From positions 23,530,388 through 23,594,387 of the forward strand of contig JASCQW010000122.1 of the NCBI GenBank assembly GCA_030264375.1: a stretch of DNA of 64,000 nt, read 5' to 3'. Source of the stretch: Carcharhinus longimanus (taxonomy: Eukaryota). The notes below the pieces were generated by a model, which saw only the letters and a list, made by a program, of their open reading frames with translations, made no database searches and was not told where the DNA came from. This document shows positions 27,901-30,900 of this stretch, piece after piece. A program made the translations under genes and the position numbers. Position 1 is the first letter of the stretch. Every line of letters begins with the position of its first letter.

Positions 27901-30900
27901 TGCACAAGCTTTTAATAAATAATAATAATTCCAATTAAGACATATTTAATATATGTAGATAATTCAGAATATTTTAAAGATCAATTACAATTATAAAGCA
28001 CTCATCAAATACACAAATTGCCCAACGTGCTGCAAGAAGTGTGATCAAATATGGCTTGGCATTGTCATGTATGGTAATTAGGAGAGGTGACAAAAAGTCC
28101 AGTCAAAAAGATTGGTTTTAAGGCGTGCCTTAAAGGAGTAGAATCAGGCAGAGAGGCTTATGGAGATAATTCCAGAGCTTGGGGCCTAGACAGCTGAAGG
28201 CACAACGAAACCATGGATGAAAGGAACTCCAGTTCAGAGGTTTGAAGAGCTGGATGAGGGTACAGCAATAGCAAGGGGTAAGGCTATAGAGGGAATTTGG
28301 TATTTTTGGTGTTGCTGATCTGGGAACCAATTTAGGCCAACATGATGGATGAACAGGAGTTAGTACAACTTAGAACATATGCAGCCGAGTTTTGGATAAG
28401 TTCAAGTTTGAAGGATAGAACATGAGTTGGTGACATAACAAGATTGTTGAATAGAATTTATGGTGGATGTTAGATTCATAAGTATCAATAGGAGCATTGA
28501 GTTCAATTCAACTTTAAGTAAAAGTGTATTCAAACACAAGCAATCAAATAGACCAAATTATTAGAACACTTTTCAAATTTGAAGAATTATTTAGTGACAC
28601 CTCCAAAACCCAACCTGAGTGTGGGAAATCCTTTGATAGTGATTATGTAATGCAACCAATCAATGCTTTAATGCGATTATAATTTGAAAACATGAGATTT
28701 ATTCTGAACATTGTCACAGAAGGGATAACTAGTTGATGAATCTTAGTTAAAGTTTTGCCTCCTTAACACTGCTGAACTTTGCTGTTTGGGAGCTGAGTAG
28801 CAGAAGGCAACATTTGTACTAAAGTCTAAGATTTACATTTGGACTCTGAAACCATTAGGTGCTGAGGTAGACTGTCATTTTTGAGATCTACTCTACTCAG
28901 TGAACCATTGATTCAGTTTACTTGCCATCTTTAGCATCACTTCAAAATGGGAAAGACCTTGTAGCACATTAAAGGTGCTATGTAAATTCAGCCCAAATTG
29001 TACCACAGAACCACAGAGTAGCAAAGGAAGTATCACTGACCACTTTTAAAATTTAATGGTCATGCATCTAGAATAGTATTTACAGCTATGGTCACTGTGC
29101 TTAAGATAAGGGGCAATGGAAATAATTTAGGGAAGTAAAAGGGTGTTTTGCCCCTGGTGGAAAACTAGAAATCATGACGATAAATCAAGATATCACAACT
29201 TGCCCATGGCTTAGAGAATAACATCTTCGTACTTGGTCATCAACTTAATGGATATGGCATGACTTTAGCACAGTAAATTATTAATTGAAATATTCAAATA
29301 GTAATTGCATCAAGTCCAAATTCAGTATTGACTAGGTTTGTAGATTGATAGGGATGAAAGTGAACAAGTTGATTGATGGACAAATGGATTTTTATCAGTG
29401 TTGCCTACTAAGCATATATTCTTCATTTCTTACGTTCATAGCAAATACCAAGTCGACAAAAGAAAATTTTAGAAGAGGCTCATGAATTGAGTGAAGATCA
29501 CTATAAAAAGTATTTGGCTAAACTCAGATCCATCAACCCTCCATGTGTGCCTTTCTTTGGTAAGCTTTGTTACCCTTTTTCTGTGGCAACTGATGTTATG
29601 AAAAGTCACTTTCATAACAGCCATGAGTAATACGACATAAATGTGTCACATGATTCTTGTTGCATTGGTAGTCAGTTTCATTTTTATCCACTTAATTCCT
29701 TTATTCATTGCTATTTCTTTGTCCTAATATGGATAGTTTGGAGAAATTTTCTGCTCATTCAGCGCTGGATGTCTGATAATTTAGCAAAAATGAAGGAGTT
29801 GAGAGAGGTGGTGATGAGGTGGAATTAGCTGTTGACAACATACATACAAAAACTAACGTTGCATTTTTAGATGATATTGCTGCAATGCAGCATATGGATG
29901 AGAATTGGGAGGGAACCAAGAATAAGTTATTGTGGGACACCAGAGGTAATTGTGCAAGAGTGGGAAGAAAAGCTATTGTAAGTGATAATTAAGAAAGCCC
30001 ACCAACACCTTTATTTTCTCTGAAGACTAAGAAAATTTGACATGTCAGCTACGACTCTCACCANNNNNNNNNNNNNNNNNNNNNNNNNNNNNNNNNNNNN
30101 NNNNNNNNNNNNNNNNNNNNNNNNNNNNNNNNNNNNNNNNNNNNNNNNNNNNNNNNNNNNNNNCCTCGCTGAATATATTTAAGTCACGGGTAGATAGGTT
30201 TCTGATAGACAGGGGAATTAAGGGCTATGGGGAGAAAGCAAGAAAGTGGAACTGATCCACTTCAGATCAGCCATGATCTTATTGAATTGTGGGGCAGGCT
30301 TGAAGGGCTAGATGGCCTACTCCTGCTCCTATTTCTTATGTTCTTATTTTTCCACCGTCAAAGATTCTTTCCCAGTCTAGTGGACAAGACACTCAACTCT
30401 GTCCGACCCATTTCCCACACTCCTGCCTTCATCCCTTCCCCTCCCTTCCAGAAGGATGATAGGTTTCCATATGTCCTCATTTTCCACTCAACTAGCCTCC
30501 ATCTTCAAAAGGATCGGTAGTCACTATTTCTGCCAACTCTAATGTGCTATCTCCATGATATTGTCCTCTCACCTTCATCAGCTCCTCAAAAACCCAACAG
30601 CCTTTCCTCCCACGTTTACAGTCTCCTCCAGCCCCACGTTCTTATCTACATTCACAGCTTTTCCAGCTCTGGCTTTCAGTGGACCAGTTTCATTGGGATA
30701 GTTTCCATCAACTTAACAGAGCCACAAAATACATTGTAAAGTTCAAAACACTTAGCTTATTCAGGAGTTTGTTAACTCATACCCCAATTCTAAAATCAGC
30801 ACCACAAGACAGATAGCGTTGATCTGGTGTATTGACTTTAATCAGGAATTGAGGTGGGCCTGTTAGAATATGAGCTCCTTGATTAAGGGCAATATTGATG

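Follow-up and report, generated by a model that had tools for sequence, protein, structure and literature searches.

A complete exon of SOS1 lies inside an intron of ACSL5 in the genome assembly of Carcharhinus longimanus, and this location is very probably an artefact: the exon appears to be an ordinary, single-copy exon of SOS1 that an assembly misjoin has placed in the wrong gene. Most likely, about 2.7 kb of SOS1 around the exon have been joined into the ACSL5 intron by this error. The window, that is, the whole stretch of 64,000 nucleotides that was analysed (G000:C122:23530388-23594387), belongs to a scaffold of 55.8 Mb (C122), and positions given below without a scaffold name are those of the window.

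Identity of the exon

The exon (29442-29559) occupies 118 bases of the plus strand and runs from phase 0 to phase 1. An acceptor AG at 29440-29441, itself preceded by a pyrimidine-rich tract, and a donor GTAAGC starting at 29560 delimit it, and all 39 of its full codons are open. The encoded peptide is identical to human SOS1 at 39 of 39 residues (chain 3ksy_A, 892-930; E 2.4e-20), which is far beyond chance, and it scores 76.5 bits against SOS1 versus 53.9 bits against the best SOS2 chain. In bamboo-shark SOS1 (P0032) it corresponds to residues 889-928. Positions 111-152 of the RasGEF model PF00617 are covered by the exon, which taken alone reaches 19.3 bits on this model, below the cut-off of 23.1. 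Its limits agree with those of the SOS2 paralog on C112 and with the fish genomic reading frames P0006 and P0024. To judge by its sequence, the segment is a real genomic exon of SOS1 and not of SOS2, presumably the one known as exon 17 in human numbering. Compared with the CDC25 (RasGEF, PF00617) exon of SOS1 (human 892-931), no difference is seen in the sequence itself; only its place in the assembly differs.

An earlier note on this DNA had described the segment as a plus-strand SOS1 exon, distinct from SOS2, with these limits and splice signals, and both the coordinates and the identity hold. Its further statement that the exon has intronic flanks and is no processed mRNA copy is likewise sound, in that a processed pseudogene consists of joined exons without introns and the window contains a single exon with acceptor and donor, from which the adjacent exons are absent. 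The note also regarded F929 as needed for Ras exchange, in agreement with excerpts of PMC3762125, in which the mutation F929A cripples the RasGEF function of SOS1.

The host intron

ACSL5 is complete on the minus strand, where tblastn pieces obtained with three shark references cover it from residue 1 to residue 677; the loss of an ACSL5 exon at the join is ruled out by this completeness. The host intron, as read from the sequence, extends over 6,091 bases (25055-31145) and contains the SOS1 exon in antisense orientation, as had been claimed, together with a gap of 100 N (30064-30163) situated 505 bases past the exon. The coordinates of these features are collected in Table 1.

Table 1. Features bearing on the placement of the SOS1 exon (window positions unless a scaffold is named; the labels LINE, SINE and CR1 are tentative and go by resemblance)
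Feature	Position	Strand	Remarks
ACSL5 coding span, complete	18856..62165	-	Three shark references
ACSL5 exon following the host intron	24966..25054	-	
Two adjacent repeats (25698-26003; SINE-like 26057-26352)	25698..26352		Alternative site of the left join
Old dispersed repeat	26387..27236		About 850 bases; 66-75% to other copies; without its terminal 55 or so bases
Tail of high-copy LINE-like element	27237..27327	+	About 90 bases; best candidate for the left join
Single-copy DNA ending in the acceptor	27328..29441	+	Putative 3' part of the preceding SOS1 intron
SOS1 CDC25-domain exon	29442..29559	+	Human residues 892-930 and first base of G931
Donor and putative start of the following SOS1 intron	29560..29984	+	
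Body of high-copy LINE-like element, contig end	29985..30063	+	Same family as the 27237-27327 tail
100-N assembly gap	30064..30163		Right-hand join
Second high-copy retroelement (CR1-like), 3' end	30164..30347	+	Starts the next ACSL5 contig
ACSL5 exon preceding the host intron	31146..31218	-	
Stranded SOS2 exons (L046)	G000:C27:22029068-22028825 and 22028303-22028250		

The absence of neighbouring SOS1 exons, also put forward earlier, is confirmed over a wider region: with three cartilaginous-fish SOS1 proteins, no other SOS1 exon of at least 27 bits is found in the window and 10 kb on each side of it (84 kb). This result bears on the idea of a nested or overlapping plus-strand SOS-like gene of which a single exon has been recognised, an idea that accords with the good splice signals and with N-runs of the window that could conceal further exons. 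A nested gene would have further exons in or near the host intron, yet no other SOS exon occurs in these 84 kb, the remaining SOS1 and SOS2 exons found are all on C99, C112 or C27, and the absence of this exon from the SOS1 locus itself would not be expected of a third SOS gene. A gene of this kind is therefore highly improbable.

The SOS1 locus

A whole-protein search of G000 with bamboo-shark SOS1, run with a stricter first look, yields 35 matches, of which 18 are on C99, 15 on C112, one in the window and one on C27. The 18 matches on C99 lie in order along C99:19194173-19422880. SOS1 stops there at residue 834 (19219040) and resumes near residue 986 (about 19210302), with a run of 6,423 N (C99:19211781-19218203) in between. 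Three SOS1 exons are absent from C99, encoding residues 835-888, 889-928 and 929-986, and the window has the middle one. Elsewhere in the genome, the exon for 835-888 finds only a SOS2 match (seven candidates scored), and for 929-986 the whole-protein searches with the stricter first look gave SOS2 only. The N run on C99 could be a mask instead of a gap, masked stretches likewise reading N; every long region fetched contains sized N runs, from 6 to 6,461 bases, as does the window, and these count against this reading (36,965 N are contained in the 236,000 bases fetched from the assembly).

To the question of whether the true SOS1 gene still has the exon, the answer on C99 is that it does not, and that 6,423 N stand at its place. 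The earlier note had itself taken a SOS1 locus lacking the exon as the mark of a misjoin, and an assembly chimera, the last of the three options that it listed, agrees with an exon that is single-copy and with a SOS1 gene that lacks it at an N run.

The single copy, the intact splice sites and the unchanged protein would also be expected after a real relocation, in which the exon has moved and SOS1 is either broken or rebuilt by trans-splicing between chromosomes. The home locus, however, carries a sized hole and no clean deletion, and a relocation of this exon leaves the two other absent exons unexplained. Moreover, the exons that remain on C99 match bamboo-shark SOS1 closely, for example at 98.6% over residues 398-616 and at 100% over 720-794, so that the gene is not decaying. 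Relocation is also opposed by the embryonic lethality of the SOS1 knockout in mice (PMC8234257, excerpts), and on these grounds it is barely credible. In relatives, SOS1 is whole: the cartilaginous-fish proteins P0032, P0036, P0040 and P0053 have the peptide between its usual neighbours, and among the 120 best matches 25 contain the peptide unchanged, 23 of them in the usual neighbour context.

A separate feature of the locus is the size of the first SOS1 intron, which at about 122 kb (C99:19422779-19422880 versus 19300575) accounts for over half of the gene span.

Copy number of the exon and its flanks

With 29200-29800 as query, a DNA search of G000 (all 15 candidates scored) returns the segment itself, one place on C112 that matches at 75% over the exon, and brief matches to repeats, while a protein search with the exon returns the exon and C112 at 76% (three of three candidates scored). 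The paralogous exon on C112 is that of SOS2, with 64.5 bits to SOS2 chains versus 59.3 to SOS1. For the flanks, no second copy of the left one (27328-29441) was found among the 40 of 452 candidates scored, nor of the right one among 40 of 2,688, the matches being repeats and both counts lower bounds. No other copy of the exon was thus found in the assembly. The sequence shared by the window and C99:19190001-19260000 consists of repeats only, and no read or contig was found to connect the flank of the exon with SOS1 on C99, which is a point against the misjoin.

A piece of the SOS1 locus duplicated into ACSL5, either recently or under selection, had been the preferred view of the earlier note, and a donor copy was accordingly to be sought in the assembly. 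The SOS1 locus has indeed been located, on C99, but it holds no donor copy of the exon, and with a single copy found and an N run in place of the exon at home, the duplication is not supported. The form in which it can best be maintained is a real and recent event, in which about 2.7 kb of SOS1 would have been copied to the ACSL5 intron, perhaps through ectopic recombination between LINE copies or through repair involving them. In the assembly, the two near-identical copies would have collapsed into one, so that the donor appears as the gap on C99. The copy itself would in all likelihood be a passenger without effect, antisense to ACSL5. Near-identical duplicates that are collapsed in an assembly are known to leave a hole at one site, the left side of the piece is continuous, gap-free sequence, and both of its ends lie in one LINE family in the same orientation. 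Against these points, neither a second copy nor a divergent fragment was found, in searches that are partly lower bounds, and the gap on C99 also takes in two exons that are absent from the window. A duplication is thus improbable, and it is further weakened by the situation in other genes described below.

The left side of the stray segment

The contig is free of gaps from 22953 to 30063, and the left join must therefore be located within it. At the tail of the LINE-like element (27237-27327), summed depth ranges from tens of thousands to hundreds of thousands, and does so in four of four runs. The old dispersed repeat ends at the left edge of this tail, its own terminus missing. For comparison, 18 loci of the old repeat were used, of which L039 (match ended early) and L038 (N-run) were dropped; the 16 remaining copies, which had been selected for reaching the terminus, share it with leave-one-out scores of 6.2-46.4 bits, and 13 of the 16 exceed the highest score among 3,000 random stretches (14.2 bits). 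On the same terminus profile, the window beyond the LINE tail scores -0.1 bits, a value that 1,688 of the 3,000 random stretches reach or surpass. A continuation of the old repeat to the right of the LINE tail, suggested by eye, is rejected by this profile test. The truncation of the old repeat could result from a join between two copies of the LINE tail, and a real deletion gives the same picture.

Target-site duplications give no signal in any of the repeat families (at least 9 bases in 0 of 20, 1 of 11 and 0 of 5 copies) and are thus of no help in placing the join. Overall, the LINE tail is the fairly probable site of the left join, the two adjacent repeats at 25698-26352 are an unlikely one, and a site elsewhere is less likely still; this placement is less certain than the misjoin itself. 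A point against a misjoin at the LINE tail is that ordinary reads could span a repeat as short as this one, of about 90 bases.

Short-read contigs of X1, X2, X6 and X7 have been placed on 22953-29400, a range that ends short of the exon and of the right-hand gap. Those of X1 show no differences on the eight pieces listed and cover 24705-25740, 26308-27206 and 27298-29063, the last interval by two overlapping contigs; X1 is possibly the assembled sample, and its agreement is then not independent. A contig of X2 joins the old repeat into the LINE tail (27187-27277). None of the pieces listed crosses the whole of 25744-26308 or of 27206-27298, which is left out of account since repeats always break such contigs. 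To the right of 27298, the depth of X1 is 10 and 5.6, versus 8.1-9.98 for the ACSL5 pieces; these values do not suggest two copies, and as one figure per contig they are too weak to count. The coverage of 27468-29400 in X2, X6 and X7 is thin and not interpretable.

The right-hand gap

The element at the right end of the contig (29985-30063) is 91-95% identical to many places in the genome. In three of four other copies of this element, its own tail follows within 366-695 bases, and in none of the four does it precede the retroelement that is found here on the far side of the gap. The presence of different retroelements on each side of the 100 N is a point in favour of a misjoin.

Probable course of the presumed misjoin

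A misjoin of this kind would most likely have arisen in a few steps. A short-read assembler or a gap-filler would have left the ACSL5 intron through the LINE tail of about 90 bases, come out of this tail at its SOS1 intron copy and then run through the exon, until after about 2.7 kb it reached the following LINE copy, in which the chimeric contig ends (30063). Scaffolding would have retained this contig in ACSL5, next to a gap of placeholder size, and SOS1 would have been left with a sized hole that can accommodate the misplaced piece as well as the two lost exons. Normal splicing into the SOS1 mRNA would be expected for the exon in the animal, where it would supply part of the Ras-binding catalytic site. 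Biologically, the arrangement most likely has no consequence, as the exon would be a normal one of SOS1.

The same pattern in other genes of the assembly

Comparable situations are encountered in other genes. In the case of SOS2, two consecutive exons are found on C27, where they match catshark SOS2 over residues 1026-1102 (95%) and 1108-1125 (94%); the first retains its AG and GT, and 30 kb of C27 contain no further SOS2 exon. The SOS2 gene on C112 has 6,461 N (C112:34491206-34497666) exactly between residues 1025 and 1125. In the ACSL1-like locus on C43, residues 477-515 are absent and N-runs of 5,395 and 1,677 are located there (C43:22619754-22627968); a lone intact ACSL exon on C105 (40832218-40832099, L051) complements this hole and is 77-80% identical to all three references, with no clear identity. 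Within the 30 kb fetched, the ACSL6-like locus (C109:50244001-50263100) has N-runs where its last exons should be, and an isolated final ACSL exon occurs on C163 (17453075-17453212, L055). It is probable that the stray on C105 comes from the ACSL1-like locus and that on C163 from the ACSL6-like locus, and no more than probable, since both were assigned by complementarity, that is, by which locus lacks the exon.

Altogether, a stray exon with a hole at home is seen in four of the five multi-exon genes examined, ACSL5 being the whole one; the five are not a random sample, as they are those brought up by three whole-protein searches. All four strays lie within 2,423 bases of a 100-N gap, a distance within which 39% of the background bases and, of 20 ACSL5 exons, 5 also fall; this is a weak result given that the threshold was chosen afterwards. 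This recurrence weighs against real duplication, which would call for many independent recent events, each of them collapsed alike. The broader proposal, that the ACSL5 intron holds a real block bounded by LINE copies, brought in with its intact catalytic SOS1 exon by recombination between copies of a retroelement, and that the SOS2, ACSL1 and ACSL6 strays are further exon captures, has only a slight probability. If these joins were real, the rate of exon capture would be striking and would point to a shark lineage with frequent LINE-driven exon capture between chromosomes. The extreme form, in which exons have moved and the genes are rebuilt by trans-splicing, is extremely improbable.

Some further observations concern the same genes. 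For SOS2 residues of about 113-167, no match is found on C112 between 34550158 and 34545532, possibly another exon lost to a gap. The first exons of the ACSL1-like query match C68388:6502-6699, C947:4110-4226 and C7657:1198-1368 and not C43, and these are probably unplaced pieces of the ACSL1-like gene; further lone matches of the same query are on C137, C150, C132 and C190.

Relation to known systems

Exons are known to be carried along in segmental duplications and to be shuffled when retroelement copies undergo ectopic recombination. The segment in ACSL5 resembles the products of such events as an intron-flanked exon at a foreign site with one repeat family at its bounds; it differs from them in that the donor site is a gap, no donor copy is found and the pattern is common to unrelated genes. 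No SOS1 piece in ACSL5 is reported in the titles and the beginnings of the abstracts of 15 of the 20 papers naming both genes.

Closer parallels are provided by the false gene losses of older vertebrate assemblies, which, according to excerpts of PMC9516821, affect 26-60% of genes and include genes split across scaffolds, with ADAM7 and YIPF6, each divided over two scaffolds, as examples of the 'fragmented' class. The situation described here is similar to the cases in these excerpts, with exons on a foreign scaffold and others missing at N-runs, and it departs from them in that the stray is located inside the intron of another gene, on a scaffold of 55.8 Mb, with one join within a gap-free contig. 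The features of a fragmented gene found for SOS1 are the exon on a scaffold other than that of the gene (C122 versus C99), the N gap at home, which may be a mask, and the integrity of the gene in relatives.

Since four of the five genes examined have an exon on another large scaffold and a hole at home, reports from this assembly of orphan exons, of lost exons or of unusual gene neighbours are suspect until the home locus has been checked for a gap.

Other features of the window

Two further features of the window were observed around the host gene. At 4551-8518 on the plus strand, reading frames that contain a DHHC motif, and the exons after them, are arranged tail to tail with ACSL5, as expected for ZDHHC6, which we take this gene to be. 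At 50344-54723 on the minus strand, several fragmented frames of LINE type, presumably the endonuclease and reverse transcriptase of a retrotransposon, lie in an ACSL5 intron and adjoin a 100-N gap.
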